Shown: positions 20,704 through 38,896 of the stretch, piece after piece | Numbering within the stretch: the first letter of the stretch is position 1 | Layout: each line of letters opens with the position of its first letter | IMG/VR virus record: IMGVR_UViG_3300033146_001635 | Span: 1-64,000 of that record | From: a virus | DNA: 64,000 nucleotides | Direction: 5' to 3' (one strand) | Translations under genes and position numbers: made by a program | The notes under the pieces: generated by a model | The model's database searches: none | Told to the model about the DNA's origin: nothing | The model's input: the letters and a program-made list of their open reading frames with translations, nothing else

Positions 20704-23700
20704 ATGGCTGATTATTCAAAATCAATATCATCTATATCATATAATAAAATAGCTGATTCTACAAAAAAATATGCTAAACAAACTAATAACAAGGTAAATG
20801 CGAATGTAGATAGACTTAATAAATCTATTGATAAAATAGATCAACATAGAATTAAAAAAACTGTATCATCTACATTGAATAGCATGGAAAGTGCTTCAAA
20901 AAATTTAGCCAGACAAAGCGCTGTACTTGTTTCAAATACAACAAATTTATTTAAAACATCTGTTGAACAAATTAATAAAGTATCTTTCGGAACATTGAAA
21001 TTAGCTACTGATTCAATGACTGATATTAAAAATAAAATGACCGAAGATATTCATATTAAAAAATCTAATACATTAATGCTTTCAGCAGCTCAAATATCTC
21101 CATTATTAGGATACTTTTTAAAACAAGCTGCTGAAAGTGGTGTATTTGATAGATTTAAAAATTTTGCAAAAGAAAAATTTGATAATATACGTAATTCACG
21201 TAGTAGTGGTGGGGTTGGTGGTTTAGAAGGCCCCGGGGGTGATTTTGATTTTGATGAAGATTTTGATAGTAGCCCCATATCTAAATCTAGATCTAAAGCA
21301 ACTAGAAAGAAAAAGAAAAAAACAATTAAAAAATCACCTGTTAAAAATATTGTTGATAAAGCTAAAAATGTTGCATCTGGTTCAAAATCGACAATTAAAA
21401 GCACAATGGCAAAAGAGGGTGTTAAAAGTATAGAAGCTTTGACCCTTAAATCAATTGATACAAAATTAGGTAAAATTTATAAAGTTTTAAGTGAATCAGG
21501 TATTACTGTTAGTGAATTAAAGAAGCCTAAAAAAATAGAATCACTAACACCTGGTTCTAAAAAGCCGTGGAAAGCGAATTTATGGTCAGCTTTTCTTGCA
21601 TGGCAACGTGAATCAACATTAAGTGATTTGGGTGTTGACCAATCTACATTTTACCAAAGTAGATTTGGTAAAGATGAAAAGAAAAAAGGTATATTCAAAT
21701 CCGCTATTAGAGCATATAAAATTGCAACAGATGAATCAACATTAACTGTTCAGGAAAAAATGCTTAAAGCATTACTTGAAATGAACAAATCTATTTCTAA
21801 ACAAGATGGTGTTTGGAAATTAGTTGCTGATAGATTATTAATTGAACATGCGACATTGCGTACAGCAGTATGGGCATTTAAGAAAGTAAAAGGTGCTGTT
21901 GCTCATTTAATGGGATATAGATTATATAAATGGGCAACTAAATCAAGAGGTGGTTATAATGCTAAATTACCTCGTGGTTTAGGTGCAATGGAACATACTG
22001 CTGCTGTTCTTGATATGTTATATGTTGATGGAATGTGGCGATTAGATAATATTGTTTTTCAATTAAAACAACAATATAATTTATGGGCTTCATATGTAAA
22101 AAGTCAAACTGGTCAACAATTCTCCGAACCACAAGATGTTACTGATAAAACATGGAGATTTTTAACACCGATTACAAAAAAAATTAAACAAAAATATAAA
22201 AGTTGGCGGCAAGCAAATGAAATTCCTGAATATCAAAAATATCAAGTTACAACAAATGATTTATTAGAAAAGCAAATTAATATTGGAAAAACACAAGTTC
22301 GTTTATTAACAATTATTGCTGAATCAATTAGTGCAACATCTGGATATGACAAAAGAAAACAAATAAAAGAAGCATCAAATATAGAAGATACTTATGCAGA
22401 TAAAAGAGTGGCAGAAGATGAATATTGGTTATCCAGTGACGAGAATTTAAAAAAATGGAGAGCTTCGGCATTTTTTAAGAAAAAAATAGAAGCTAAATTT
22501 GGGAAAAAAGATTCAAAAATTAAAAAGTTACGAGATAAAATTTTAGAAAGAGAATCCAGAAGGGGTGGTAAACAACAATGGAAACAATATAAAAAATCTG
22601 GAAAATATTCTGTTGACAAATTTGATCAAAACGATGAATTATTTGAAGCAGGAACTGATTATTATACTCCCACTTTTAAGAAATGGGGAAAAGGTGCTAA
22701 AAGTTTAGGAAAAGGAGCCTGGAAATTTGCTAAAACTGTAGCAAAAGATACTGCTGGTGGTATGGCTGCTTTTGGTGCTGGTGTGGGTGGTGTAAACCCT
22801 GAAACACTTGAAACAATTAAAGAAGTAAAAAAACAAAAAGATAAAGAAAAAGCAGCCATCTCTGACAGACTCACCTTAAAAATGGATGAAAGTGTTAGAA
22901 TAAATAAACAACAACTACGAATAGACACACAACAATTACACCATAGTCGTAAACAACTAACTATATTACAAAAAGTTGGAGGATTTCTTAAAAAAGGATT
23001 AGGTGGTGTTTGGAAAATTGTTAAAAATTTATTCGTATTTGGTTTTGGAATAGTTAAAAATTTATTAGGTGGATTATTAACTAAACTTGGTTTAGGTGGT
23101 TTATTAGGACAAGGTGTTGGGTATGCTGTTGGTAGAGGTGTTAGATGGTTAGGCGCCCAAGCTATAGCAAGTCCTGCTATGGCTGGTGGCGTAATGGCTG
23201 TTGGCAAAGGATTGTATGATGCATATGGAGCTTATAAAAAAAGAAAAGAATGGGGTGTGCATGGTACATCCGCTGCTATAGGTGGATTTTTAGGGGGGTC
23301 TGGAGAAGGTGGTGTAGCAAGTGCATTGAATGGAGCGGCTAAAGGTGCGGGTATTGGTATGATGGCTTTTGGCCCACTAGGGGCTCTTGTTGGAGCTGCT
23401 GTGGGTGGTATTGCTGGTGCTATAGGTGGTGAGAATTTATCAAAAGCAATTGATTTTATATTAGCTCCTTTATATAAAATAAAAGATTTAGCTATTAAAT
23501 ATGTTATCGATCCAGTTTTAGCTGTATTTAAATGGATTGGTTCAACAGTATGGTCGATGGTTAAAGGGTTGTTTCATTTTATTTTACACCCATTAGATAC
23601 AATAAAAAGTATTGGCAAACGAATTAATAATTGGATTGTTGAAAAACATCCATGGGTTGCTAAATTTCTTGGTTTATCACATAAGGATTTAGGTGATAAA

Positions 23701-26700
23701 GATAAAAAATCAACTGCTGAAAAAGCTGTAGAAGCTAAAAAGAAAGTTGAAGAAAAGAAAAAAACAGAAGCAACTGGATGGATGGGTAGTTTATCAAATT
23801 GGTGGCACTCTGATGATATAGAAGAAAAGAAAAAAACAATCAAAGACAAAGCCCAGGCACAATATGCACTAAAAAAAGCAAAGGCAAAAAGTTTAAGTAA
23901 ATCTTATTATAAAACTGGTGGTGCAGATGTTGGTGGTAATAAAAGTTTATTACAACAAGGAAAAGATTGGTGGAATTCTGATGATGTAAAAGCAAAAAGA
24001 AAAGTTGTTAAAGACACTGCTGTGGGCATGTATGCAACAGCTAAGGCTAGTTTCAAAGGAGCTACATCAAATTATAGAAAAGGTGCTGGCGCAGACAGAG
24101 GTTCACAAATTGGTGTATTGGGAAAAATAAAAACAATTGATTCTCATAAATCCAATAATTATAATAAATTACAATATAATGAAACATTTAAACAAATTCA
24201 AGGATTAAATTTATCCGTTCCTCAAATTATATCATATTTAAAAGGCGCAATTAAAACAATTCAACGTGATGGAATATTTATTGATGATTTAAATGCTATT
24301 CATTTTGATAAAGATGATTTACCAAATCTTCAAAAGATATATGATACTTTAACAAAAAAAGATATTAAACATGTTACAACAAGTGGTACATTAATTGCCA
24401 CAGCTGAAACAATTGGTAAAAATATCTCAACTGGTGTCTCTAATTTTGCACAATCAGTAACCAATCCAAATTCAGAATTTTCCAAAGCACACCCAACAAT
24501 GTCAAATATAGCATCAACTGCTGTTAGTACAACAAAATCTATTGGGTCTTCAATTGCGGCTGCTGGTAAAGCTGTTTGGGATTCTGGAAAAAATGTATAT
24601 GAAAATTTCATTAATAATATTCCAACATTGAATTCTGTTTTTGTTGAATTAGGAAAAACAGTTCAGAATTTAATAGGCATGTTATCTGGAAAATTTGATA
24701 AAGCCAAAGGTGCCATAAAAGAAAAATTACAAGAATATGGTATTTTAAAAACACCTAATAAATCCGATATGGGTGACATAGGTGATGATATTGCGGCTCA
24801 TTACAAAGCTCCAAAAACAATGTGGCAACGAATTAAAGGTGGTGTTGGAAAAGGGCTATCTTCTTTATGGAAATCAACTGCATTATATAAAATAAATGAT
24901 TATTTTAATAATTATCATGTCAGACATATGCAAGGCAAATCTGATATGGGCGCAGTTGGTGATGATATTGCCGCTAATTATAAAGGTAAATCAGGTGGTT
25001 TGATGGAGCAAGTATTTGGAACTATAGGAAAAGTTTTTAGTTCTGGAAGTACATCTGATTTAAGCTGGGATAATATTAAAGAAGCGGGTAGTAAGAAATT
25101 TGGTGGGGCTGTAAACTCCTTAAAGAAATTTCTTGGAATTAATGAAAATACTGATTTAAGTTTTGATGAATTTAAAAGGCAAATTGCAAAAGTTTCACCT
25201 GAAGATATTGAAAAATTAAAAAAACGATTTAAAGACCATCCTTTAATTCAAAAAGTATTATCAACTGTATTACCACATACATATAAATCTGATATGGGTG
25301 GTGTGGGAGATGATATCGCAGCTCATTATAAAGCTCCAAAAACTAGAGGTGAAAAAATATTATCATTTTTAGTAAAAATGGCATCTGCACCTCATAGAAT
25401 AAATAAATATTTTAATACTTATCATGAAAAACATATGCCTGGTTATTCGGATATGGGCAAGGTTGGTAATGATATAGCTGGTAAATCTAAAGAAATATCA
25501 ATTCCAGGTTCAGTTGGTAAATTAGAAACAACTAAAGGTAAACAAAATATATTTAATGAACTTGGAATTAAACGAATAAAGGGATTGGTATACACAGATA
25601 AAATTTTAGAAAATTTAGAAGATTTTGATGATTTAGTATCTGATAATCAAAATGGTATTAATTCATTAAGTCCTTTTGAAAAATCATTATATTTATATTT
25701 AAATGCTGAGCATTATATGAAACTTGTTAAGCCCAACGAGTTTCACAAATTAATGTCTGATAAAAAAACAGCAAGACGAATTATAAAATCAGCATTGTAC
25801 CATTATCCAGATCCTATATATTATAGTAAAGAAGCTTTAAGCAATATGCCATCATCTGCCGAAATGAAATTAAAAAGATCTGCTAGATTTTGGAGAAAAA
25901 GATATGAATATACGGGTTCTAATTTCAATATAACTATTAAAAATGGAAAAGCAGATCACAAAAAAGATAAAAAAATTGATGAAATTGCATCACAAAACAC
26001 ACAAGTTAATAGTGAAAATGTTAATAATGTTAAACTAAAAATTGAATCAAAAAAACCAAAAGAAATATCTATACCAAATTCAGTTGGAAAATTTGAATTA
26101 ATTAAAGGAAAACAAAATGTTTTTAATGAATTAGGTATTAGTAAAATAAAAGGTTTTGTATATACAAATGAAATTTTAGAAAATTTAGAAGATTTTGATG
26201 ATTTGGTAGCTGATAATAAAGATGGTATTAATTCATTAAGTCCTTTTGAAAAATCATTATATATGTACTTAAATGCATCTCATTATATGAAGCTTGTTAA
26301 ACCTAATGAATTTCATAAATTAATGTCTGATAAAAGTACAGCTAGGCGAATAGTTAAATCAGCATTACATCATTATCCAGATCCAATTTATTTCAGCCAA
26401 GAAGCATTAAATAGTATGTCATCTACAGCTGAAATGAAATTAAAAAGATCATCAAAATTATGGCGACAACGATATAATGTTGGTGCAACAAATGCTGATA
26501 TAACTCTTAAAAATGGTAAAGTTTCTTCTATATCAGAACAAAAACAACAACCTGTAATGACGAAAGATGATATAGCTAAAAATCATGCTTCCCAAAAAAC
26601 ACAAGAAATAAATAAATTAGGCAATCATTTATCAGAAAGTATTGAGCATCAAACCAAGAATTTAGAAAAAACAACCCAAGGATTATCTGCTGTTGTAGCT

Positions 26701-26841
26701 AATACATCAAATCAAATGTCAAAAATGATAACAACTAATAATACAACAACACAAGTAACAAATAATAATCAACAACCATCATCTTCAAAAAATGAATATG
26801 ACCAAAATATAGAAAATATTTTAGCATGTAATTTAGTTTAA
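20704..26841 (+). CDS. Tape-measure-like / large ejected virion protein
   Basis: 2045 aa, helical Lys/Ala-rich, Gly-rich hydrophobic segments (GPLGALVGAAVGGIAG), C-terminal Asn/Thr-rich tail, internal repeats. Confidence 0.7.
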   Translation: MADYSKSISSISYNKIADSTKKYAKQTNNKVNANVDRLNKSIDKIDQHRIKKTVSSTLNSMESASKNLARQSAVLVSNTTNLFKTSVEQINKVSFGTLKLATDSMTDIKNKMTEDIHIKKSNTLMLSAAQISPLLGYFLKQAAESGVFDRFKNFAKEKFDNIRNSRSSGGVGGLEGPGGDFDFDEDFDSSPISKSRSKATRKKKKKTIKKSPVKNIVDKAKNVASGSKSTIKSTMAKEGVKSIEALTLKSIDTKLGKIYKVLSESGITVSELKKPKKIESLTPGSKKPWKANLWSAFLAWQRESTLSDLGVDQSTFYQSRFGKDEKKKGIFKSAIRAYKIATDESTLTVQEKMLKALLEMNKSISKQDGVWKLVADRLLIEHATLRTAVWAFKKVKGAVAHLMGYRLYKWATKSRGGYNAKLPRGLGAMEHTAAVLDMLYVDGMWRLDNIVFQLKQQYNLWASYVKSQTGQQFSEPQDVTDKTWRFLTPITKKIKQKYKSWRQANEIPEYQKYQVTTNDLLEKQINIGKTQVRLLTIIAESISATSGYDKRKQIKEASNIEDTYADKRVAEDEYWLSSDENLKKWRASAFFKKKIEAKFGKKDSKIKKLRDKILERESRRGGKQQWKQYKKSGKYSVDKFDQNDELFEAGTDYYTPTFKKWGKGAKSLGKGAWKFAKTVAKDTAGGMAAFGAGVGGVNPETLETIKEVKKQKDKEKAAISDRLTLKMDESVRINKQQLRIDTQQLHHSRKQLTILQKVGGFLKKGLGGVWKIVKNLFVFGFGIVKNLLGGLLTKLGLGGLLGQGVGYAVGRGVRWLGAQAIASPAMAGGVMAVGKGLYDAYGAYKKRKEWGVHGTSAAIGGFLGGSGEGGVASALNGAAKGAGIGMMAFGPLGALVGAAVGGIAGAIGGENLSKAIDFILAPLYKIKDLAIKYVIDPVLAVFKWIGSTVWSMVKGLFHFILHPLDTIKSIGKRINNWIVEKHPWVAKFLGLSHKDLGDKDKKSTAEKAVEAKKKVEEKKKTEATGWMGSLSNWWHSDDIEEKKKTIKDKAQAQYALKKAKAKSLSKSYYKTGGADVGGNKSLLQQGKDWWNSDDVKAKRKVVKDTAVGMYATAKASFKGATSNYRKGAGADRGSQIGVLGKIKTIDSHKSNNYNKLQYNETFKQIQGLNLSVPQIISYLKGAIKTIQRDGIFIDDLNAIHFDKDDLPNLQKIYDTLTKKDIKHVTTSGTLIATAETIGKNISTGVSNFAQSVTNPNSEFSKAHPTMSNIASTAVSTTKSIGSSIAAAGKAVWDSGKNVYENFINNIPTLNSVFVELGKTVQNLIGMLSGKFDKAKGAIKEKLQEYGILKTPNKSDMGDIGDDIAAHYKAPKTMWQRIKGGVGKGLSSLWKSTALYKINDYFNNYHVRHMQGKSDMGAVGDDIAANYKGKSGGLMEQVFGTIGKVFSSGSTSDLSWDNIKEAGSKKFGGAVNSLKKFLGINENTDLSFDEFKRQIAKVSPEDIEKLKKRFKDHPLIQKVLSTVLPHTYKSDMGGVGDDIAAHYKAPKTRGEKILSFLVKMASAPHRINKYFNTYHEKHMPGYSDMGKVGNDIAGKSKEISIPGSVGKLETTKGKQNIFNELGIKRIKGLVYTDKILENLEDFDDLVSDNQNGINSLSPFEKSLYLYLNAEHYMKLVKPNEFHKLMSDKKTARRIIKSALYHYPDPIYYSKEALSNMPSSAEMKLKRSARFWRKRYEYTGSNFNITIKNGKADHKKDKKIDEIASQNTQVNSENVNNVKLKIESKKPKEISIPNSVGKFELIKGKQNVFNELGISKIKGFVYTNEILENLEDFDDLVADNKDGINSLSPFEKSLYMYLNASHYMKLVKPNEFHKLMSDKSTARRIVKSALHHYPDPIYFSQEALNSMSSTAEMKLKRSSKLWRQRYNVGATNADITLKNGKVSSISEQKQQPVMTKDDIAKNHASQKTQEINKLGNHLSESIEHQTKNLEKTTQGLSAVVANTSNQMSKMITTNNTTTQVTNNNQQPSSSKNEYDQNIENILACNLV
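24757..25479 (+). repeat. Four SDMGxxG(D/N)DIA peptide repeats arranged as two paired units
   Basis: At about 24760, 24937, 25285 and 25447. Confidence 0.85.
25489..26520 (+). repeat. ~154-aa domain duplicated at a 570-nt spacing
   Basis: KEISIP.SVGK...ILENLEDFDDLV...LSPFEKSLY...HYPDPIY...IT.KNGK at 25489-25950 and 26059-26520. Confidence 0.9.
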
Positions 26842-26861
26842 AATACATAGAGGTTTTTATA

Positions 26862-29198
26862 ATGGCTATGCAAATTGAAGGAATAATTGGGTTGCCCCCA
26901 TATGATAAAGCTAATGAGGCAGAATATGCAAAAATAAAAGATTCCATGCCTGTTGCTAAAATATATCCATGTAAACAACATTTTATAACAGGTTCATCTA
27001 CTTTTAGATTAAAAACTGCTGAACGTTATTTTAGTTTATTAGAATCACATGGATATTCATTAGACACACCATATGTACCTTTAGCTTTTTTAGCTGATAG
27101 TTTCCCAACTGATAATTTTCAAAACAATTATTCTGAAAGTTTTTTACAAAATATTACATCAGGTGTATCGCAGGGAATGTCATCTTTAATGCAAACATTA
27201 GGTGCTAGAACAGGTACAGAAGCCGCACAAAAAGCGTTAGCTGCTGGTGGAGCAATGGCAAAAACATTGGGTTGGAAAGGTGTTGGTTCATTGTTGGATA
27301 AAAGTGCTGGTTGGGCAGGTGAAACTGGAAAAAAAATACATGCTGTGGCTAAAGAATATGGTGGCACATCAATAGGAATGGTGGCAAAAGCTGTAGATAG
27401 TATTGCCGCAGGTGCTAGATTTGATTTTCCTATGATATGGACTGATTCGTCATATCAACCATCTTATACTATGACTGTTCGATTATATAATCCAAATCCC
27501 GGTGATGCTAAAGCAACAGAAAAATATATTGTTGCTCCTCTCGCTGCTATTTTATTATTGGGTGTTCCGTTATCTGATGATGATTCTGGTTCAACATATA
27601 ATTATCCATTTTTACATAAAATAAAATGTGATGGTATTTATTTTTTGAATCCATGTTTTATAAGCAATATAAGCGTCATTAAGGGTGGAGACCAACAACA
27701 GATAGCATATAACCAACGTCTTGGTATTGTTGATGTACGTATTGATTTTGGTAGTTTATATTCATCGTTGTTAGCTACTGAGAAACCAAATAATGATAGA
27801 CCTACCTTAAAAAAATATTTAGAAGTAATGAAATATGATAAACTATTAGATGAAGAATTATCTGATAAACATTTTATTCAAGAAACAGATGCTAATATAT
27901 GGTCAGACCCATTTAATCCGATAACAACAAAAACAATAGCTGATTTACCTAAAAGAATATCCGAAAATATTAATAAAACAGAATATAATATTTTAGATAG
28001 TATGATAGGAGATCTTGGTAGTTTAAAAAGAGTAGCTGATACTGGTTATCAAATTCCTGATAAATTTATAACTGAATTATATAAAAATGGCGTAATTTCA
28101 GCTGATGATATTTTTTCAGTCAAACCTGATTTTAAATTACCTGATTTAAAAATGCCAGTTCCTAAATATATTCAAAATATATCAAAATCCTCAATGTCGC
28201 TTTTATCAGGAGTTGGCACATCTGCATCCGCATTGGCAGGGAATTTAAGTGATTTAAATTCTTTTGAAAATCAGTTACAAGAAATGATTACAACAACGGT
28301 AGGTGATATTTTACCACCAATTTATTTTAATGGTGAAAAAATAACTGATGCACTTACAAAAAGTCAAGCTATGCAATTAATAAAAAGTGTTCAGAATAAA
28401 AAGAATAGTATTATTGATACTATTGGAAGCGCATTAAATAGAATGGATTCAGAAGTATCATATTTGAATGATTTAAGTTCTAATTTTAATAATATATCTG
28501 GATTAACAAATTATCTATCAACGGTTGTTGATTTTGATTCATATGATGATTTAATGGACAAATTAAAACCTGGTAACATACTTAATGGAGCAGAAAATAT
28601 TATCAAAGATATGGTATCATCTGGATTAAAATTCAATGATAGTAACATGTTTAAAGGTATTGTTTCTACATTAACAGATCCTGGTGAACAAATGGACTTA
28701 TTAAAATCTATTATTGCTAAAGGAGTTGATTTTGTAGGTAAAATAGATATTATAGATATGATAAAAAATGGAGTTCATTTTGATGTTAAAAATGTCTTAT
28801 TAGATATGGCAGCACAAGAAATAAATTTTCAAGCTACTGGTGTTTTAAATATGATTCTTGGAAAAAATTATAAATTTGACGCAACAAATGTTATAAGAGC
28901 TGTCATGGAACCTGGAAAAAGTTTTAAAGATACATTAAATTTATCAGGTAATTTGAAAAATTTATTAGATGATTTGAAAGATTCAGCTGCTGACACGGGT
29001 GTTGGAATTGCGAAAGATTTAAGTAAAGATTTGATGCGATATGTTAAATCTGCTTTGTCTAAGTCACAAAATACAATGAAAATAAATCCACAAAAATATA
29101 TTGACAATTCAACAAAAGCTGCTACAAATGAATTAAATAAAGGACAGATAATGATAAGAGATTATTTAAAACGGCAAGTTCATATCATTGAAGTTTAA
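26862..29198 (+). CDS. Putative tail-tube initiator/baseplate protein with long C-terminal extension
   Basis: FPMIWTDSSYQPSYTMTVRLYNP, YNYPF, CFISNISVIKG..VDVRIDF tube-fold-like pattern; follows the tape measure gene. Confidence 0.5.
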   Translation: MAMQIEGIIGLPPYDKANEAEYAKIKDSMPVAKIYPCKQHFITGSSTFRLKTAERYFSLLESHGYSLDTPYVPLAFLADSFPTDNFQNNYSESFLQNITSGVSQGMSSLMQTLGARTGTEAAQKALAAGGAMAKTLGWKGVGSLLDKSAGWAGETGKKIHAVAKEYGGTSIGMVAKAVDSIAAGARFDFPMIWTDSSYQPSYTMTVRLYNPNPGDAKATEKYIVAPLAAILLLGVPLSDDDSGSTYNYPFLHKIKCDGIYFLNPCFISNISVIKGGDQQQIAYNQRLGIVDVRIDFGSLYSSLLATEKPNNDRPTLKKYLEVMKYDKLLDEELSDKHFIQETDANIWSDPFNPITTKTIADLPKRISENINKTEYNILDSMIGDLGSLKRVADTGYQIPDKFITELYKNGVISADDIFSVKPDFKLPDLKMPVPKYIQNISKSSMSLLSGVGTSASALAGNLSDLNSFENQLQEMITTTVGDILPPIYFNGEKITDALTKSQAMQLIKSVQNKKNSIIDTIGSALNRMDSEVSYLNDLSSNFNNISGLTNYLSTVVDFDSYDDLMDKLKPGNILNGAENIIKDMVSSGLKFNDSNMFKGIVSTLTDPGEQMDLLKSIIAKGVDFVGKIDIIDMIKNGVHFDVKNVLLDMAAQEINFQATGVLNMILGKNYKFDATNVIRAVMEPGKSFKDTLNLSGNLKNLLDDLKDSAADTGVGIAKDLSKDLMRYVKSALSKSQNTMKINPQKYIDNSTKAATNELNKGQIMIRDYLKRQVHIIEV

Positions 29199-30313
29199 CA
29201 AACAAAATTTTTAAGTGACCAAAATAGATAAAAACTTAAAAAATTAAGATATGTATATTTACTTTGAATAGATAATTTATTAAATTCTTTTGTTAAACGG
29301 GCATCTTTAACAATGTCATCTAATAAATTATTAAGTGATTCTTTAAGATATTTTGTTTTATTATTTTTAGATCTAAGAATATGTTTTACATCAGTGATGA
29401 ATCGAGATGAACAAAGACTATTCACACTTGATAAATTTGAAATATAAAGCATATATATAGTAGTTAATGTATCAGTATATTTAGCATTACTAATTTGTTT
29501 AACTAATAATTGTCCATATATTTTATTAACTGAATTTATTTTTAAAGCATTTTCCAAAGCTTTTATATCAACAAATTTATAAACAGTTATTTTTTGAATT
29601 AAGTTCACCACATGTTTTGGAACTTTTGATGTAGCTTCAACTGTTGATACATCACCTTCATCATTTCTAATTTCACTTTTTTGTTGCGCTATTTTATTAC
29701 CTTTTTCTGAATTATAATAATATGCTGTTGCAAAACTTTTAAGACTTTGTGCATGCCTATGTCTACATTCTCGTATAAACATAGATATTTGCATAGGTTG
29801 ATCCATTTTTTTTATTATTTTTTCCCATCTTTGGACCATTTGATTACTAAAATGATAAATAGCGTTAGCAATTGTTTTTTCTCTATAATAAATATGTGTT
29901 TTGTTTATATTTTCTAAAGTATATTTAAATACATCTGGTTGGCAAAATTTAAAAGTTTTGTGAAATAAATTAGAATATTGTCGCAAATTATAAAACAACA
30001 TACATGAACGAAATCCCACCATATCACGTTGTTGTAAAAAGAAGTGCATAATCAAAACATTAATATTATTAATTGGGTCATTTTCTAATAACCATGATTC
30101 TGCTTTTGTGCCTTTGTAGTATTCTTTCGAAGCTTTCTTGACATCATCTTTACTGATGCCCAAAATATTAAACAAAGTATCCTCATATTTTCTTAATTTT
30201 GGTGCATAACAGGGTTCTGATAAATTTAGTAATTCATTACTAGTGATTGTTTGGAAATATTTTCTTAGTTTTAATTTTAATCGTACCCAATCACTTTGAA
30301 TTAAATCTTTCAT
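29195..30313 (-). CDS. Hypothetical protein (basic, helical)
   Basis: 372-aa ORF, last gene of the minus-strand baseplate operon. Confidence 0.7.
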   Translation of the reverse strand: MKDLIQSDWVRLKLKLRKYFQTITSNELLNLSEPCYAPKLRKYEDTLFNILGISKDDVKKASKEYYKGTKAESWLLENDPINNINVLIMHFFLQQRDMVGFRSCMLFYNLRQYSNLFHKTFKFCQPDVFKYTLENINKTHIYYREKTIANAIYHFSNQMVQRWEKIIKKMDQPMQISMFIRECRHRHAQSLKSFATAYYYNSEKGNKIAQQKSEIRNDEGDVSTVEATSKVPKHVVNLIQKITVYKFVDIKALENALKINSVNKIYGQLLVKQISNAKYTDTLTTIYMLYISNLSSVNSLCSSRFITDVKHILRSKNNKTKYLKESLNNLLDDIVKDARLTKEFNKLSIQSKYTYLNFLSFYLFWSLKNFVC

Positions 30314-30323
30314 AATTTACCTT

Positions 30324-32870
30324 TTAGTTAACTAATCTAATTGTAATATCATCTTCTGTAAAATATAATAATTCAGGAGTGTATGTTAATAAATTTTCCT
30401 CAGATAATTCCTCTAATTTAAAATTATAAAAAATATTAGAAGCTGGTTTAATTAATCTACAATGATCAACTCCTTCTATATTTTGTACAGTTGCGATTAT
30501 TTCAGATCTACTTAGATATGATTGGCATACCATTCTATCTTTAAAAGTTTCTAAAATAGTTAATTTTATAGTATTGATAAATTTTTGCATATCAATTGTA
30601 TAATTTTCTTTCATTCTAACATCTAAATCAATTTTTAATGGTATTTCATAAATTGGTTCAATCCAATCACATGATGTATATAAATATTTTTTATTTGTAT
30701 TTCTTGCATATATAAAATCATCCATTTCTGGTTTAACATATGTCCAATCAATTTCACCTGAAGTTGTATCAATACTAATACAAGTAGCAATATAACCAAT
30801 TTTATCTTGCCATTCAGGAAATTCTGTTCCATTTATAATATATCTTTCATTAATTTGTGGAACCCAATTAACATATTCTAAATCAATATAATCCACGGGC
30901 AACCGTGTTTCTTTATTTAATAACATATTTCTTAATTCTTTTGATGTATTTGCAAATTTTAAATTTACAAAATCTGTCATCATTCTTATATCTTCAAAAT
31001 TAATATTATCAATAATTCGTTGAATGACATAATATTCAAAATCAGCTTTATTAGCAATCAAATCATAATAATCTTTTCTAATAACAGGAATATCATATAT
31101 AGAAATACTACCATCTTTATTTATTACCGTATTAGATAACATTGTGTGATTTAAATTTTTTCTAAAAATAAATGATATCGAATATTGATTTAATCTTCCT
31201 TTTGTTGGATGATAAAATGTAAAATAATATGTTTCTTTGTTTTCAGGTAATAATTCATATGGTGTAAAAGATATTTCAAAAAATCGACCAACAGTATTAA
31301 TTGTCATATTCTGATGAACAAGAGTGTTTGTAACTTCTAATAAACATTCAACTTCATCAAAATCAGTTTCAGTTGTTTGAAAATATACTTTTAAATATAC
31401 AGTAGTATAATCTGTTTCAACCAACAAACTTGTTGCAAAAAAATTATATTCTTCTAAACTTAATCCAACTGAAATTAAATTTAAATCATATATAACTTCT
31501 TTAGAAGTATATTTGTATCTTGTTATTTCTAAATCTTTATCTATTTCAATATTAAATGGTAAAATATATATATCCCCCAAATATGAAATTTCTTGATATT
31601 TAGGTATTTTTATAATTCCATCATTAAAATCACATTGTATATTTTCACATGCAGTTGAATCAAGTGTTATATGAACATTTTCTGTTGGAACAATTTCATT
31701 TTTATACATTAAGATAGAATAAATTTGCATTTCATTGGTACGAATATCTGATCGTTTTAATACAGGATATGTATTTTTAGCAAGTGGGGTATCTTCAGCT
31801 AATGATCCAACTACCTTATAATCATTTTCAGAAACAAGTCTGTGTAATGCGGTTAAGTTATTAATTGCGTTAGCTTTGATAACTTCTAAACTTGGTTCAT
31901 CTTCTCCACCTTGTGCGGGTGAAGGGTTAGATACAGAATAATTGATTTCAACTCTTTCACCTGTGCCAGTTACACCATAAATATTATCTGTTATAATATT
32001 CTGACCAGATATAATATTACCTCTTTCACCTAATGTAGTAAAAGCTGTTACATATATAATACTATTAACAGGAGGTTGATAACCTATTAATCCATTACCA
32101 AAATATATTTTTTGTCCTATATCACTTTTTCTAATTACAAAACCCCTATCATTTGGAGACATGAGATATATTGATGAAAACTGGTCATAAATATATTCTA
32201 TATCATTACCAGGTTCCACAACTTTTACTTCTATAGCAGATAATTGACCATCTAATCTTATTTCATATTCTGTAAATTGATATTCTAAATGATTTTTATT
32301 AACAGAAAATTCAAATTTTTCTACATTATATTGTTTCGCATAAATCATTATATTGAATGTTGTCATTACTTCATTATCATAATCAATATAAACTGATAAA
32401 TTTTCTGAAACATCTTTATCATATTTATAAGCCGTTACTATATTATTACGTTCAACTACAACCTTGACATTATAATCAATAATAAAATTTATATTATCTA
32501 TTTTAAAATTTGAATATTTTGGAATAACAAAAGTAACTAAACCATCTGTGAATCTAAAAGGAAATGACAATATTAAATTAATAGTTGAATGTTTAGCATT
32601 ATAAGGAGTGTAGCCAATACTAGCTGCTAAATCCATTACACTATTATTTAATTGAGCTTTTGTTAAGAAAAATTCTTTATAAACAGAAATTTGATAAAAT
32701 AAAATATTAGATGTTAATGTTGATAATATATTTATAATATAAGATAAAAAAGAAGATTTGGTTAAATCAACATCAACAAGATCTAAATATTGTTTAATCT
32801 CTTCTATTAACTGTGTACGGATTGCTTCACGAGATAAAAATATTTCATTTGATAGAGGTGATATTGCCAT
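30324..32870 (-). CDS. Baseplate wedge protein (T4 gp6 / baseplate J-like)
   Basis: EFFLTKAQ..SV..LA..IGY, IYFGNG.IG..PP, GGEDEPSLE.IK.NA...RLVS.NDY, SEIIATVQNIEGVD. Confidence 0.85.
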   Translation of the reverse strand: MAISPLSNEIFLSREAIRTQLIEEIKQYLDLVDVDLTKSSFLSYIINILSTLTSNILFYQISVYKEFFLTKAQLNNSVMDLAASIGYTPYNAKHSTINLILSFPFRFTDGLVTFVIPKYSNFKIDNINFIIDYNVKVVVERNNIVTAYKYDKDVSENLSVYIDYDNEVMTTFNIMIYAKQYNVEKFEFSVNKNHLEYQFTEYEIRLDGQLSAIEVKVVEPGNDIEYIYDQFSSIYLMSPNDRGFVIRKSDIGQKIYFGNGLIGYQPPVNSIIYVTAFTTLGERGNIISGQNIITDNIYGVTGTGERVEINYSVSNPSPAQGGEDEPSLEVIKANAINNLTALHRLVSENDYKVVGSLAEDTPLAKNTYPVLKRSDIRTNEMQIYSILMYKNEIVPTENVHITLDSTACENIQCDFNDGIIKIPKYQEISYLGDIYILPFNIEIDKDLEITRYKYTSKEVIYDLNLISVGLSLEEYNFFATSLLVETDYTTVYLKVYFQTTETDFDEVECLLEVTNTLVHQNMTINTVGRFFEISFTPYELLPENKETYYFTFYHPTKGRLNQYSISFIFRKNLNHTMLSNTVINKDGSISIYDIPVIRKDYYDLIANKADFEYYVIQRIIDNINFEDIRMMTDFVNLKFANTSKELRNMLLNKETRLPVDYIDLEYVNWVPQINERYIINGTEFPEWQDKIGYIATCISIDTTSGEIDWTYVKPEMDDFIYARNTNKKYLYTSCDWIEPIYEIPLKIDLDVRMKENYTIDMQKFINTIKLTILETFKDRMVCQSYLSRSEIIATVQNIEGVDHCRLIKPASNIFYNFKLEELSEENLLTYTPELLYFTEDDITIRLVN

Positions 32871-32881
32871 TTTATAAAACC

Positions 32882-33538
32882 TTATAATAAATAAAAACCA
32901 GAATTAGAATCAAATCTGTTTTTAACACTAGCTTTTAATTTTGAATTCATATCCATTAAATTTAATAATAATGTAGCATTTTCAATGGTATGAAGTTGTT
33001 TGTCATATTCAAAAAACATATATGTGTCATTAGTTTGATTTTCAACTTCTTGTATAGTTCGTGATTGGTCAACTTCTATTTTCAGTTTCCAAAAACGTCT
33101 ATCGGTATTGGGCGCAATTTCAACACCTGATACATGATATAGCGGATGTTGATTAGGCTGCATTTGTAAATAATCTTGTTCAAATTGAATTATATCATGT
33201 GGATATGGTATAAATTTATATTCAGATGGAATAACAAAAAATGATTCAGTTAATTTATTTTGACCAATTTCACTTGCATCAAATGAAACTATTGAAACAT
33301 CTTCAATGAAAAAAATAGGAAGTAATAAAAATTTATCCCATCTAATTCCTGTTAAATCACCAATTTCTTCATATGCACCACCCATTACATATTCATTATC
33401 CCAAATAGTTTCTTCTTTATTTAGATGATAATATGTAACAAGAAAAGCGACAGCGTCTTTAGCATAATACTCATATACCAAATATTGATATTCATGAATA
33501 TAATGATAAAGACGCTGCCATAATTGTGGAGAACTCAT
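32882..33538 (-). CDS. Putative virion structural protein
   Basis: 218-aa ORF inside the baseplate operon. Confidence 0.5.
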   Translation of the reverse strand: MSSPQLWQRLYHYIHEYQYLVYEYYAKDAVAFLVTYYHLNKEETIWDNEYVMGGAYEEIGDLTGIRWDKFLLLPIFFIEDVSIVSFDASEIGQNKLTESFFVIPSEYKFIPYPHDIIQFEQDYLQMQPNQHPLYHVSGVEIAPNTDRRFWKLKIEVDQSRTIQEVENQTNDTYMFFEYDKQLHTIENATLLLNLMDMNSKLKASVKNRFDSNSGFYLL

Positions 33539-33957
33539 TGAGCAGTATCCTTAATTTTTACCGTTAATGTAGATTTTTCACCGTGATAATTAACTATTAT
33601 ATCAACAATAAATCCTTTTCCCGGTGGTTTAGCAAATTTTACTTTAACATCTTCAATGGAAGCTCTATTATCATAATAATAAATGCTATTATAAATTTCT
33701 TCCCTGATTTGTGACATTGTTTCAACATCAGCAGGTTGGTATAATAAATCATATAAACCACTTCCATAAGGAGGATCATGGTCATATGTTCCTCTTGGAG
33801 TTAATAAAATATTATTCCAAGAATTCATAATAACATTTAAATTTTCAATTCTTTTAAAATCACCAATAGGTGATATTGCAGAAACATAATCAATGTATTT
33901 AACTGACTCAGTTCTGGTTCGTGGAGTTAAATTAAACCGTGATAATGGATTAGCCAT
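33535..33957 (-). CDS. gp25/GPW-like baseplate wedge (sheath initiator)
   Basis: NILLTPRGT...PPYGSGLYDLLYQP...IYYYDNRA. Confidence 0.85.
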   Translation of the reverse strand: MANPLSRFNLTPRTRTESVKYIDYVSAISPIGDFKRIENLNVIMNSWNNILLTPRGTYDHDPPYGSGLYDLLYQPADVETMSQIREEIYNSIYYYDNRASIEDVKVKFAKPPGKGFIVDIIVNYHGEKSTLTVKIKDTAQ

Positions 33958-33971
33958 TTAATATATCTCCT

Positions 33972-34181
33972 TTAAATTGTTACCTTATCCTGAGCATCAT
34001 TCATTAATTTTTCTTTTTCTTTTTCTAAATTAGACTTCCATTTTAAATATTCTGTTAATTTAGATACGGGCATTTTAACAATACTTTCATATTGTTGATG
34101 CCCCGCTTCCATAGCGGCAAAAATCAATTCATTTTGAGCTTCTATAAACGATTGTCTATATTCACTACTGGTACATTGCAC
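33972..34181 (-). CDS. Small ORF downstream of the gp26-like chaperone; possible +1 frameshift extension
   Basis: Overlaps the upstream ORF in the +1 frame; GTG start with no SD; YESIVKMPVS pattern. Confidence 0.55.
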   Translation of the reverse strand: MQCTSSEYRQSFIEAQNELIFAAMEAGHQQYESIVKMPVSKLTEYLKWKSNLEKEKEKLMNDAQDKVTI

Positions 34182-34953
34182 GAAAGAAATTATCGACTAA
34201 GTCGATATCTATCACCTCCGTATGCCCACATTTTGTACAAGTGTTTTTCATTTTAAGTGAAATTTGATATTTGCCAAAATTGTCAATATACGATTTGTTA
34301 ATAATTTTTTTGTCTTTAGCAGGTAATGACAAATAAGCTCTGATAACTTCATCCCTATCTTCAATTATCATAGGTTCTTTAGCTTCTTCTGCATGATCCC
34401 ATATAAATTTATCAATAATAAGTGTTTCAGCAATTAATTCATTTGAATAATTTTGAAAGGTGAATCGTTTCATAGCTTCATTTTCATCTTTCAAAGTCGG
34501 TTGTTTAATAACAACTTTAACTGTTTTAAGAATTTTTAAATCTTCTGTAACTCTTTTTTTAAGAATTTCATTTTCTTTACCATCATATAATTCCATTGAA
34601 AAGGTATCGGAAGCATTAACAGTGACATCTTGGTTTGCACCACAATTACCACATGTAATAGTGTAATTACGGATTTCTTCATATGTTATATGATAAAGAC
34701 CATATAACAATGCTTCTCTATCTTTAAGGGTAACAGTTGATAAAAATTCATCTAAGGTATATTTTTTATTTTTTTCGGCAATAGCATCATATATACATTT
34801 ATTTAAATGATTAAGAATTTTCTTTTCATTTACTAATGATGCTTTCATCTTTTCTTCATCAGCAATTGTTAAACTTTTTAAAAGAAAAGATTGTTTTGTT
34901 TGAGGTGTGATTACTTCATAAGTTGGTAATGCGACGTTAAACGATGTAAACAT
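34165..34953 (-). CDS. T4 gp26-like baseplate hub / tail assembly chaperone
   Basis: LPTYEVITP, LTIADE, two CxxC pairs (CGNC, CTKC), ends DNFF. Confidence 0.75.
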   Translation of the reverse strand: MFTSFNVALPTYEVITPQTKQSFLLKSLTIADEEKMKASLVNEKKILNHLNKCIYDAIAEKNKKYTLDEFLSTVTLKDREALLYGLYHITYEEIRNYTITCGNCGANQDVTVNASDTFSMELYDGKENEILKKRVTEDLKILKTVKVVIKQPTLKDENEAMKRFTFQNYSNELIAETLIIDKFIWDHAEEAKEPMIIEDRDEVIRAYLSLPAKDKKIINKSYIDNFGKYQISLKMKNTCTKCGHTEVIDIDLVDNFFRAMYQ

Positions 34954-35020
34954 GTTTTTTCTCCTTATCTTTGAGTTTTACACTACTATATCTTCTCGAA
35001 ATATAAAGTGGTATCTATAT

Positions 35021-35034
35021 CGATATTATGTTCC
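35021..35034 (-). promoter_or_regulatory. Late-type promoter variant GGAACA-TAATAT-CG
   Basis: Upstream of 34953. Confidence 0.5.
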
Positions 35035-35143
35035 TATCTTAAAAGAAATTTTTATGATTTATTTGTTACGTAATTTAGATATCTTATTTTGAATCTGTTG
35101 TCTACATTTTAATGGATCTGTAGATTTTTTACACATAATAAAC

Positions 35144-35824
35144 CTATTTTTTGATTTTCTTTTGAATCTTTTTTATTTCACTCTGTATTTTTTCTCTATA
35201 TTTAGAAGGATTTTTTGTTTTATTAGATAAATCAAGAGATTTTTTCAAAGTTTTAATTTTCATTTGATATGCTTTATTTTGATAATTAGTTATACAAGCC
35301 TGTTTTTCATCACCAGTTTTACCTTTACAATATTGTGCAGCTTTTGAAAAATAATTTTTATATATTTTATAAGCACCCGCGATAGCAATAGCAGCCAAAA
35401 CAGTCCAACCTATTTCAGTAGAATGATCTTTAATAACATCTAAAATAGAATGAGGATGATTTACATCGGGTACTATTGAATGTGAATTAACTGTAGGATG
35501 TGGTTTATTTTCAACATAATCTTTATGCAAGTTAGTTGGAACAATTGATTTTGTTCCAGTATCAGTTTTATGGAATTTTTTAGGAATTATACTTTCTGAT
35601 AATAAAATATCAAAATCATGTTTCAAATCTTCTATTAAATACGTAACTACAGATGGACCAAAAACATCTATACATTCAAATAAATTATTTTGTAAAAATA
35701 AAGCAGCTTGCCCTAATTCTGCAATTTCTTCATGAATATTTAACCATTCTAAATCTGGATTAGTTTCAAATATATCTTTTTCATTTCTATGAATATAATG
35801 CACTGATTCATATAAGATGCCCAT
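35144..35824 (-). CDS. Propeptide-TM-Cys helical paralog family member
   Basis: LLSE site, TM IGWTVLAAIAIAGAYK, then YFSKAAQYCKGKTGDEKQACI...NPSKY. Confidence 0.75.
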   Translation of the reverse strand: MGILYESVHYIHRNEKDIFETNPDLEWLNIHEEIAELGQAALFLQNNLFECIDVFGPSVVTYLIEDLKHDFDILLSESIIPKKFHKTDTGTKSIVPTNLHKDYVENKPHPTVNSHSIVPDVNHPHSILDVIKDHSTEIGWTVLAAIAIAGAYKIYKNYFSKAAQYCKGKTGDEKQACITNYQNKAYQMKIKTLKKSLDLSNKTKNPSKYREKIQSEIKKIQKKIKK

Positions 35825-35836
35825 CAGTAATCTCCT

Positions 35837-36919
35837 TTAAATCCTATTACGTAATTTAATAATTTTTTGTTGAATTTCATGTCTACATTTTATAGGATTG
35901 GATGATTTTTTACACATTCCTATTGATTTTTGTAATACTTTTATTCTTTCATTAATAGCTTTTCTTTTAAATTGTATTATACAATCATTCTTTTCTGCAC
36001 CACTTTTATTACTACAAGCTTGCCCAGCTTTTGAAAAATATCGTTGATATGCTTTATACGATAAATACCCGGCTACACCAACTAAAGCAGCTACCCCAAT
36101 TGTTGTTCCGTGATTTTGAACAAATTGATATACTTTTGGAAAATTATCCTGTAATTTATGTGCTAAATTTGTAAAAAATCCATCTGTTTCTTTTGGTTCA
36201 AGAACATGTGGGGAAGGTTTTGTTTCTATAATTTTAGGAGTATTTTTGATTTTTTTTGGTTCAGATGGTTTTTCTTTACTTGTATCATTATTAGAGCCAG
36301 TAGCTAATTTATGTAAATTTTTTAAAAAAGTTTTTCTCGATTCGTCACTTGCCTTAACAGATTGTTCCATTGATGAAGATTCTTTTGGTTTAAAGCCAAC
36401 TTTTTCAGGACCCTGACCTATATTAAAAGCCTTTTTAAAATTATCCACCATTTTTTTGTTAGATGGATTTTTCAAATCTTTGTTAACCAAATTTAAATTT
36501 TTTATTTTTTTAAACATTCGTTGATTTGATGGTTTTTTCAAATCAGATTTAATCATATTAGTTATATCAGTAGCTATATCTTCATTAAGAATATTTTTAC
36601 TTGTAATACTTTTTAATGATCCAATTTCATGAATAAAATTATATATAACATCATTATCAATAATTTCAGTTAAATTATAACTATAATCAATAATATGATT
36701 TTTTAATTTGTTTAATAAAATATTCTCATATAATTCTATATTCACATTTTTAGGAGATTTTTTTCCAATTATAGCATAAGACAATACATCTGTATCTGAT
36801 AAATTATTTATAGATTCAGATATAGTAATATTATTTTTAAAATTTTCTTTTAATGCTAATCGAATAAATTCAATTAATAAAGAACTTTCAAAAATATTTA
36901 TATGTTTATTAATAAACAT
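35837..36919 (-). CDS. Propeptide-TM-Cys helical paralog family member
   Basis: Shared N-domain, ILNE site, TM GVAALVGVAGY, YFSKAGQACSNKSGAEKNDCI...NPIKC. Confidence 0.75.
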   Translation of the reverse strand: MFINKHINIFESSLLIEFIRLALKENFKNNITISESINNLSDTDVLSYAIIGKKSPKNVNIELYENILLNKLKNHIIDYSYNLTEIIDNDVIYNFIHEIGSLKSITSKNILNEDIATDITNMIKSDLKKPSNQRMFKKIKNLNLVNKDLKNPSNKKMVDNFKKAFNIGQGPEKVGFKPKESSSMEQSVKASDESRKTFLKNLHKLATGSNNDTSKEKPSEPKKIKNTPKIIETKPSPHVLEPKETDGFFTNLAHKLQDNFPKVYQFVQNHGTTIGVAALVGVAGYLSYKAYQRYFSKAGQACSNKSGAEKNDCIIQFKRKAINERIKVLQKSIGMCKKSSNPIKCRHEIQQKIIKLRNRI

Positions 36920-36941
36920 TTTTTAACAAACTCCTAAAATA

Positions 36942-36981
36942 ATATGTGACCCCATATTAAAAATAATATGGGGCCACATAT
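36942..36981 (-). terminator. Stem-loop between paralogs
   Basis: atatgtgaccccatatt/aatatggggccacatat. Confidence 0.6.
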
Positions 36982-37003
36982 AACCAAAATAATAAATTAT
37001 AAA

Positions 37004-38122
37004 TTAAGCTAATTTAGCTTGTAATTTAGAAATTTTAGCAGTTAAATCGGTACGACATTTGGCGGGATTGGTTGCAGCTTTACAACCAGATAATGATTTT
37101 TTCAGCATATTAATCTGTTGTTTAACAGCTTGCTTTTTAGCATTGGCAATACAAGCTGATCTTTCAGCCCCAGATTTACCTGCACATGATTTAGCTGCCT
37201 GTGAAAAATATCGTTGATAAGCTTTATATCCAAGAAAAGCCGCCATAGCAACAAGAGCAGTAACACCAATGGCCTTAGCATGACCACCACTATGTTGATT
37301 TACAAATTGTGTAAAACCTGACCATGCTTTGGAAATATTTTGACCCACATTACCAGCAGCAGCTCTTAAACGGTCTAACCATCCTGTTGCAGCCACTTCT
37401 TTAGGTGGATTTTTAGCAATCTCATCACCAACACCGCCCATATCTGAATGATTATTTTGTTTAGCAATATCATCACCAACACCACCCATATCTGATTTAT
37501 TTGCAGCGCCAGTTGTGCCTGCTGAATTGACCCCTTTAAATTCACCTTTATAAGAAGGGGTATAAACTTTGTGGGTTCCTGCTTGAGTTGGATTGTCAGC
37601 AGCCGCAGATGCATTAGACTGCCGCATAGCTGCATCAACTGCATTTTTTGAATATGTATGACTAGTGCCACCACTAGAATTAACACCACTAAATTCACCA
37701 GCTCTAGAATTTGGATATCTATTACCAGAATCCGCACCAGCTAATTTACTATATTTTTCAGTTAAAATCCCTTCCTGAATTAAAGTCATGGAATCGGAAT
37801 CAACCATTGATAATCCACCAATTTCATGAATAAAATTAGAAGGTGTATAGCCATCATCAAAAGGTAATTCACTAACATGCTCTAATACAAAATCTTTAAG
37901 ATTTGACATTAAGTATGTTTCAGCCAGAGCAGGATTATCAGTAGGACAAGCCTTGCCATACATAGCAAGTGATAATACTTCACAATCCTTAGCATCTTCT
38001 GTGATATACTTGATAGTTTCAGCTGGTGCATCTTTTTCCTTTAGATTTTCAACCAGAGCCTGACGCATGAAACCCATGAAAATAGCACTATCTTTGACAT
38101 TAATTGATTCATTTAAAAACAT
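37004..38122 (-). CDS. Propeptide-TM-Cys helical paralog with SDMGGVGD(D/E)IA repeats
   Basis: ILTE site, Gly/Ser-rich middle, TM, YFSQAAKSCAGKSGAERSACI...NPAKC. Confidence 0.78.
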   Translation of the reverse strand: MFLNESINVKDSAIFMGFMRQALVENLKEKDAPAETIKYITEDAKDCEVLSLAMYGKACPTDNPALAETYLMSNLKDFVLEHVSELPFDDGYTPSNFIHEIGGLSMVDSDSMTLIQEGILTEKYSKLAGADSGNRYPNSRAGEFSGVNSSGGTSHTYSKNAVDAAMRQSNASAAADNPTQAGTHKVYTPSYKGEFKGVNSAGTTGAANKSDMGGVGDDIAKQNNHSDMGGVGDEIAKNPPKEVAATGWLDRLRAAAGNVGQNISKAWSGFTQFVNQHSGGHAKAIGVTALVAMAAFLGYKAYQRYFSQAAKSCAGKSGAERSACIANAKKQAVKQQINMLKKSLSGCKAATNPAKCRTDLTAKISKLQAKLA

Positions 38123-38176: not shown

Positions 38177-38896
38177 TTACTTATTTATTTTTTTTTTCAA
38201 AGCTTTTTCAAGTTCATTTTTAATTCTATCACCACTATAACTACGGCATTTTTCTAAAACCCAATCTTCATGCCAAACATAATCAACATTGAACTCAATT
38301 TCTGGTTCAATTTTACCAACATTTTCAACATCTGAAGATAATAAATCTTGTGGATCTTTAGTTGGAAAAACACCGGTATAACAAGCATAATATTCAACAG
38401 TTACTCCATCAGGCGCAGTAGTCCAATAATATAATCTAGCAGCATACTGTTTTTTAGAATAACCAGTTCTATCATTACCAGCAATTAATTTAGATGATAC
38501 ACCAGTTCTATAATCACGAATACCTTTAACCCATTCATGAAAAATCTGACAAATAGGAAGACCTGAATATTCAACAAATTTTATGGAAATAGAATCTCCA
38601 TAATCAATGCTACCCGGCACTGCCCATTTTGTACCACCCAAACCTGTAAATGAAATTTTATTTAAAGTTCCACCGGGTGGTGTAACAGATAAACAACTAC
38701 CAGCTAATAAAGCTTGAACTTCCTTATCTGTTAAATTACCTGGCACTGTATTGGCATCTACCTTAACAATTTCTGGAAGATAATCAAACCATATATGATG
38801 ATATCCTGTTACATATGGCTCTGCAATGCCAACTAACGTACCACCCATATTTCTGGTAGCAACTTGTTTTGTAACATTAGTAAATGAATTTAACAT
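38177..38896 (-). CDS. Tail tube protein
   Basis: SVTPPG, VPGSIDYGDSISIKF.E, F..WV, GVFPT; immediately downstream of the sheath gene. Confidence 0.75.
   Translation of the reverse strand: MLNSFTNVTKQVATRNMGGTLVGIAEPYVTGYHHIWFDYLPEIVKVDANTVPGNLTDKEVQALLAGSCLSVTPPGGTLNKISFTGLGGTKWAVPGSIDYGDSISIKFVEYSGLPICQIFHEWVKGIRDYRTGVSSKLIAGNDRTGYSKKQYAARLYYWTTAPDGVTVEYYACYTGVFPTKDPQDLLSSDVENVGKIEPEIEFNVDYVWHEDWVLEKCRSYSGDRIKNELEKALKKKINK

Follow-up and report, generated by a model that had tools for sequence, protein, structure and literature searches.

A recurrent SDMG peptide shared by a giant tape-measure-like protein and a small membrane-anchored protein family of a metagenomic phage

Introduction

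Why should one eleven-residue peptide be encoded six times in a single stretch of phage DNA, in two otherwise dissimilar proteins whose copies lie 12 kb apart in inverted orientation? The question is raised by IMG/VR virus record IMGVR_UViG_3300033146_001635, of which positions 1 to 64,000 were analysed; the window, hereafter, is this whole stretch of 64,000 nucleotides. It has a G+C content of 26.8% and is part of a single viral contig of 94,583 bp (G000). The peptide, SDMGxxGDDIA, is found in P0001, a tape-measure-like protein of 2045 amino acids (aa), and in P0002, a protein of 372 aa with a membrane helix. A preliminary description of this DNA viewed the repeat as a short address tag linking tail-ejected with head-ejected proteins. 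Our analysis identifies SDMGx[VI]G[DNKE][DEQ]IA as a selected, portable peptide that resides in a disordered juxtamembrane linker and occurs in a tail-module context. It matches no known family and is a previously undescribed linear motif.

Results

The motif is shared beyond chance and is constrained as a peptide

The carrier genes and the motif copies are located as follows.

20704..26841, plus strand: P0001, 2045 aa, tape-measure-like by homologue comparison
37004..38122, minus strand: P0002, 372 aa, first of three paralogues between the tube and hub genes, by AF2 (AlphaFold2) model and alignment
24763..24795, plus strand: motif copy 1, KSDMGDIGDDIA, in P0001, by regular expression and DNA pattern
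24940..24972, plus strand: motif copy 2, KSDMGAVGDDIA, in P0001, by regular expression and DNA pattern
25288..25320, plus strand: motif copy 3, KSDMGGVGDDIA, in P0001, the same peptide as the first copy in P0002
25447..25479, plus strand: motif copy 4, YSDMGKVGNDIA, in P0001, by regular expression and DNA pattern
37463..37495, minus strand: motif copy 5, the first in P0002, KSDMGGVGDDIA
37415..37447, minus strand: motif copy 6, HSDMGGVGDEIA(KNPP), in P0002 and nearer to its membrane helix; compare SDMGDVGDEIASNPP in locus L017

A six-frame regular expression (SDMGxxG[DN][DE]IA) and a degenerate DNA pattern both recovered exactly these six copies, four in P0001, all in one reading frame, and two in P0002, which bears out the earlier report of a repeat in two unrelated proteins. 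The copies are separated by 16 to >100 residues. No further copy was found in any frame of the whole 94,583-bp contig, and 100 dinucleotide-preserving shuffles gave 0 matches against the six observed; sharing of the motif between P0001 and P0002 far exceeds chance. Beyond the motif, BLASTP detected no significant similarity between the two proteins. They have 5-mers in common at 14 positions (10 distinct), all within the motif block, compared with 5 for the next-best open reading frame (ORF); 13 of the 14 positions are inside the motif itself, and DDIAK also matches an unrelated site in P0001 at residue ~1955.

Over the six copies, Ser and Ala are each specified by four codons, Ile by three and the first Gly by two, and the synonymous codons for Val differ as well. 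The identical 12-mer KSDMGGVGDDIA of P0001 copy 3 and P0002 copy 1 is encoded by DNA that differs at 5 of 33 nucleotides, every difference being synonymous. Because synonymous codons vary among the copies, the constraint acts on the peptide and not on the DNA, as had been argued from the letters alone.

The motif is a conserved island within a disordered linker

An AF2 model of P0002, built on a 35-sequence family alignment, divides the protein into a helical N-domain (residues 1-125), a disordered linker (127-282) and a membrane helix with C-module (285-372), in which a basic helical hairpin with paired Cys follows the membrane helix. Predicted local distance difference test scores (pLDDT) are >90 for the N-domain and the C-module and <50 for the linker; the motifs, at residues 210-236 inside that linker, score 33-46.

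Conservation within the linker is concentrated in the motif. Between P0002 and its orthologue P0008 the motif block is 74% identical, compared with 22% for the rest of the linker and 58-60% for the folded domains. Across 13 aligned copies from five contigs, S, D, M and I never vary and G, V, G and A hardly do, and P0019 and P0021, with three copies each, match the same consensus. The motif therefore behaves as a short linear motif, as the preliminary description had supposed: it occupies a region that is disordered in the P0002 model, stands out as an island of conservation, and comes and goes among orthologues. At position 9, five of the six window copies have Asp, against 0/13 elsewhere (one-sided exact p ~5e-4), and the window copies therefore share either ancestry or a lineage-specific constraint.

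The motif is portable within the small family and sporadic among relatives

Sequences related to those of the window are all metagenomic fragments. An exact DNA-pattern scan of IMG/VR placed the motif in four other contigs only, always within the P0002 family, and a scan of JGI metagenome contigs returned the same records. Overall, at least six other metagenomic contigs carry it, in a paralogue that differs by phage: the P0002-type protein in the window and in the related contig G001, a 395-aa paralogue in G004, and the orthologue of the window ORF 44667-45539 in a 102-kb phage and in locus L009. The final copy precedes the membrane helix by ~25-50 residues in each small-family carrier.

At E <= 0.001, a HMMER search of 1.84 billion cluster representatives with a 30-column profile of the 13 copies returned six proteins: P0001, P0018, P0008, P0019, P0021 and P0020. 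P0018, P0008 and P0019 are members of the small family, P0019 having three copies, and P0021 is a protein of 218 aa with three copies ahead of a C-terminal membrane anchor. P0020, which is metagenomic and GC-rich, has a zinc-ribbon and a C-terminal membrane helix and matches weakly, through the half-motif GV[SG]D[EQ]IA only; its repeats GGVSDEIA(K/R)xPRE and DGVGDQIA are like the second half of the motif and the KNPP flank of P0002, a likeness that may have arisen by chance or by convergence (E = 1.3e-4 for five stretches taken together). A k-mer protein search with a 51-aa motif fragment passed the query alone, and a scan of one genome per species for 185,579 prokaryote species gave 0 matches.

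The preliminary description implied a conserved tag linking both protein families, and this did not hold up. None of the five giant-protein orthologues read through carries the motif (P0013 of the 102-kb phage, P0014, and those of G001, G006 and G004, with lengths of 1515 aa, at least 1792 aa and 1421 aa, respectively), nor do the closest P0002 orthologues, P0004-P0007, which are 48-59% identical. Two copies, SDMGGVGKEIAK, are present in the P0008/G001 orthologue, which is more distant. Among the phages compared, only the window phage has 5-mers common to its giant and small proteins, and no peptide module shared by the two was found in G001, the 102-kb phage, G006 or G004; the P0014 phage falls outside this comparison, its contig ending before the tail slot.

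Two further repeats were observed in these linkers. The window ORF 44667-45539 has six TYFTP(K/A)... repeats at the place where P0018 of the 102-kb phage and L009:3402-4313 have two SDMG motifs, which looks like replacement of one cassette by another within a single orthologous linker. The variable region of P0014 (L054:10001-15064) contains about six to seven AG(E/H/G)SEAGN(V/I)D repeats, and P0004 and P0005, P0002 orthologues that belong to other phages, have a similar AAGxSEAGPK in their linkers; judged by this resemblance, the SEAG repeat may be a second peptide common to the giant and small families.

The small family occupies the tail slot between tube and hub genes

The genes that define the surroundings of P0002, and its paralogues in the window, are listed below.

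38177..38896, minus strand: tail tube-like gene, immediately upstream of P0002
38960-40915: sheath gene, upstream of the tube-like gene and P0002
35837..36919, minus strand: P0011, 360-aa paralogue of P0002 without the motif
35144..35824, minus strand: third paralogue (226 aa), which shares the C-module and lacks the motif
34165..34953, minus strand: baseplate hub gene (T4_baseplate PF12322, phrog_150), which closes the three-paralogue slot, with wedge genes beyond
44667..45539, minus strand: 290-aa family paralogue with TYFTP repeats, whose orthologues in the 102-kb phage and L009 have SDMG motifs there

The P0002 family is widespread in IMG/VR (38 loci), and in all 13 of the examined loci with flanking sequence it lies between genes for a ~240-aa tube-like protein and a ~262-aa T4_baseplate/hub protein. 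Since the family occupies this tube-hub slot, its context is the tail rather than the head, and the label 'head-ejected' that the 372-aa protein had been given is not supported. One to three family copies are seen per locus (window 35144-38122; loci L019-L043). Members range from ~260 to 454 aa and are built alike, with an N-domain, a linker of variable repeats in the middle, a membrane helix and a YKRFFSKAAKAC...C module.

The tube-hub slot of contractile-tail phages is the usual place of the tape measure and its chaperones. By position and by its length-variable, repeat-rich middle, the P0002 family resembles a tape measure, and it has no homology to any known one. P0002 matched no Pfam or PHROG family; its model found no counterpart at E <= 0.001 when compared by fold with PDB and viral libraries, and sequence searches of solved structures and the ESM Atlas likewise gave nothing. 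At the end of the family N-domain (P0002 residues ~113-118) there is a conserved [ILV]-x-E, which reads LIQE here and P[IV]LEF in distant members. In sequence this is compatible with a maturation site of T4 type; no such protease is encoded on the fragment.

The giant protein carries the motif in a lineage-specific variable region

Homologues of P0001 conserve residues 1-1030, which include a Gly-rich hydrophobic region at ~750-930, and the last ~100 aa. Residues ~1030-1940 form a variable region that is specific to this lineage, and P0001 is longer by 240-620 residues than the four homologues of fully known length. The variable region is composed of paired modules: two WW...GADxG units, two SDMG-flanked units, each bordered by two SDMG motifs, and two ~150-aa domains. 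A single-sequence AF2 model of residues 1330-1945, made with no alignment, had a mean pLDDT of 38.6 and is uninformative. The parts of the variable region outside the SDMG motifs, and the P0002 counterpart of one of them, are located as follows.

25495..26538, plus strand: two tandem ~150-aa domains, P0001 residues ~1598-1760 and ~1785-1945, directly after motif copy 4
23905..23934, plus strand: GADxG copy 1, YYKTGGADVG, in P0001
24073..24102, plus strand: GADxG copy 2, YRKGAGADRG, in P0001
37724..37753, minus strand: the GADxG counterpart in P0002, YSKLAGADSG

The tandem domains close the variable region, show the pattern EISIP.SVGK...NELGI...DPIY... and have no Pfam or PHROG match.

A weaker GADxG motif, also proposed earlier to be shared, proved real. 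A six-frame scan of the contig found only three occurrences, two in P0001 and one in P0002, all in the context Y-x-K-x-x-G-A-D-x-G. Relatives of P0002 retain it (KSAGADSAK, KLAGADNQK, KAAGADRGN), and the order from N- to C-terminus, GADxG and then SDMG, is the same in P0001 and P0002. BLAST also appeared to extend the similarity, matching P0001 1352-1403 to the pre-membrane helix of the small family. This extension was rejected: a hidden Markov model of that helix, built with the motif left out, scores P0001 no better than 200 shuffles.

P0001 itself had 0 Pfam and 0 PHROG matches and no tblastn match in 50,697 phage records. Two of eight giant-family members matched tape-measure PHROGs (phrog_167 at 1e-8), and one member has a lysozyme domain. 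The P0001 gene follows those for the large terminase (18009-19703) and a HEXXH protein (19736-20689) and is convergent to the tail operon, an arrangement of terminase, HEXXH and giant genes that recurs in G001, G006 and G004. P0001 is thus not located between the tube and baseplate genes, where the P0002 family is found. The HEXXH protein, of ~310 aa, reads HEMMHMACAH here (19736-20689) and HECMHMAAAH in G001 (L004:3988-4914, minus strand). It matched no family and could be a metalloprotease or a chaperone for the giant protein.

The contig is probably a fragment of a jumbo phage genome

CheckV estimated the 94.6-kb contig to be 26% complete and its relatives of 43-102 kb to be 14-33% complete; the contig is therefore probably a fragment of a far larger phage genome. 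The sheath protein shares 24-31% identity with its closest counterparts, those of jumbo phages (phiR1-37, Staphylococcus S6-like), and an uncultured jumbo phage is the probable source. Searches of cultured phages by tblastn with P0002 and with the P0001 core found no match for either protein.

Discussion

The motif has its home in a phage-specific, C-terminally anchored family, within the disordered linker and 25-50 residues ahead of the membrane helix. Purifying selection holds the peptide there, the linker around it evolves freely, and from phage to phage the motif moves among paralogues. Invariant Met and Ile in an acidic, Gly-rich frame with basic flanks fit a peptide that folds onto the surface of a partner. 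We tentatively read the motif as a multivalent docking or recognition element for one putative common partner, a reading that we rate at somewhat under an even chance. The giant protein would then have been drawn into an interaction already made by the small family, and the partner that we favour would be either a tail-lumen or hub assembly or a host-envelope target encountered at injection. The former would parallel the cargo signals of contractile injection systems; the latter would parallel colicin Tol boxes and the variable tape-measure segments that choose an inner-membrane partner. The narrower proposal, that the motif is a transferable address tag docking its carriers onto one putative shared component of the contractile-tail or injection machinery, is possible and rather doubtful.

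The simplest history, as judged from sequence comparison, would begin with a piece of small-family linker bearing both GADxG and SDMG, of which an ancient copy entered the hypervariable region of P0001 in this lineage. There the motif would have been duplicated to four copies, which persisted until their synonymous sites were randomised. The giant protein captured it once. The preliminary description had set out, as the contrary outcome, a motif absent from orthologues of both proteins and explained by a recent neutral copying of DNA. Absence is indeed the rule for most orthologues, but the copy into the giant gene is neither recent nor neutral.

Several observations weigh against a docking function. 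Most family members, the closest orthologues included, have DAAEASGPG, AGxSEAG, GEFDGTKSQM or TYFTP repeats in place of the motif, and the putative partner must therefore be dispensable or be reached by other motifs. Because all related contigs are fragments, it cannot be established that each phage keeps at least one carrier. The AF2 monomer model places the motif on neither folded domain of P0002. Finally, the status of P0001 as a true tape measure is a transitive assignment from partial homology and is not established.

Among the alternatives, the one that survives best is a processing site, at or beside which a phage protease would cut, freeing the N-terminal part of the small protein from its anchor and splitting the giant protein. 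The candidate enzymes are a PrsW-family intramembrane protease (47596-48384), the HEXXH protein upstream of the giant gene and a prohead-type protease. PrsW-type enzymes cleave single-pass membrane proteins near the membrane; the PrsW match exceeds the Pfam cut-off (PF13367, 27 bits), and the motif is juxtamembrane in every small-family carrier. Many variants also read [GS]-x-E, like the S/A/G-x-E of phiKZ, and a HEXXH gene precedes the giant gene both here and in G001. However, five of the six window copies have Asp as the would-be P1 residue and some relatives have Gln or Asn, whereas the Glu of T4 and phiKZ sites is invariant; the invariant S, D and M are all upstream of P1. The HEXXH gene is conserved beside a giant orthologue that has no motif, the PrsW homologue is weak and present in only one of five related fragments (which is uninformative), and no T4-type or HK97-type protease, nor any of families S77 and S78, is encoded on the fragment, itself ~26% of the genome. 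Processing at the motif is unlikely.

A little less probable still is a purely physical role that needs no partner. As an acidic loop rich in Gly, the motif would bind to a divalent metal, attach to the membrane surface or fix the geometry of the linker beside the membrane helix. The D, G, G and D/E between basic flanks loosely resemble GGxGxD calcium loops, and every carrier has a membrane helix. Against this, the position of the second Gly is D, A, G, K or H, and the copies, spaced at 16 to >100 residues, do not form the 9-residue tandem (GGxGxDxUx) of RTX proteins, which makes a beta-roll impossible. There is no EF-hand or DxDxDG spacing, the P0001 motifs lie >430 residues from the hydrophobic region, and a buried contact would explain the invariant Met and Ile better than metal ligation does.

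We consider it improbable that the motif is a passive remnant, a short cassette of the kind that low-complexity linkers exchange and duplicate, with no function of its own. Such linkers are full of lineage-specific tandem repeats, and most orthologues have no motif. This reading is difficult to reconcile with synonymous sites that are scrambled while 8 of 11 residues are held over the 13 aligned copies (four invariant, four nearly so), with the excess of identity in the motif block over the adjacent linker, or with persistence of the same peptide in proteins whose flanks cannot be aligned. A DNA-level recombination or inversion site, at which crossing-over would swap the C-terminal parts of both genes, was rejected as scarcely credible: the copies are inverted and in frame, but the longest exact run in the best pair is 14 nucleotides, the pattern of conservation is set by codon positions alone, no invertase was noticed in the vicinity, and inversion would flip the entire baseplate module.

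If the docking reading is correct, the motif offers a handle on the assembly or delivery of membrane-anchored tail-module proteins in an uncultured clade of large phages, and P0001 would represent a natural case of a tape-measure-like protein that gained a partner-binding peptide through cassette capture. Were it an address tag, moving an 11-residue cassette between linkers would re-assign which proteins are co-loaded or co-targeted, and the giant tape-measure-like protein of this lineage would be a case from nature. Should there be no partner, the finding reduces to a well-conserved linker repeat. Separately, with the small family fixed in the tape-measure slot, one may ask what measures tail length in these phages.

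The docking reading can be set beside several known systems. Tape-measure proteins have host-specificity segments, as in lambda gpH with ManYZ and in the siphovirus tape measures that SNIPE recognises: variable internal regions carry the determinant of which inner-membrane partner serves at injection (PMC13190303). The motif likewise lies in the hypervariable region of the tape-measure-like P0001; such specificity segments are not described in that work as a repeated peptide common to a second family, and the likeness shares the transitive status of P0001 as a tape measure.

Prohead-protease cleavage motifs are L/I-x-E in T4 and S/A/G-x-E in phiKZ. Like them, the present motif is short and acidic and recurs in several proteins, and many of its variants read G-x-E. 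Unlike them, it does not conserve the Glu, so the pairing of L/I or S/A/G at P3 with a fixed Glu at P1 is not seen, and its invariant S-D-M has no counterpart there.

The closest parallels, with colicin boxes and with the cargo signals of contractile injection systems, are of logic only. The disordered translocation domains of colicins carry short linear motifs, such as the TolB box of colicin E9. The present motif shares no sequence identity with TolB, TolA or TonB boxes, and it is carried by phage proteins of the tail module, which have a C-terminal membrane helix. By analogy, both may be short Gly/Ser/Asp-rich peptides, possibly multivalent, in a disordered region of a protein that crosses or engages the envelope, and both are islands of conservation in a fast-evolving linker, as seen here for P0002. 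The effector cargo signals of PVCs, which are extracellular contractile injection systems, are disordered N-terminal leaders of ~50 aa, unlike the internal 11-mer repeat described here. By the same kind of analogy, a transferable disordered peptide would in both cases address proteins to a contractile tail, and the small family is indeed encoded beside the tube gene.

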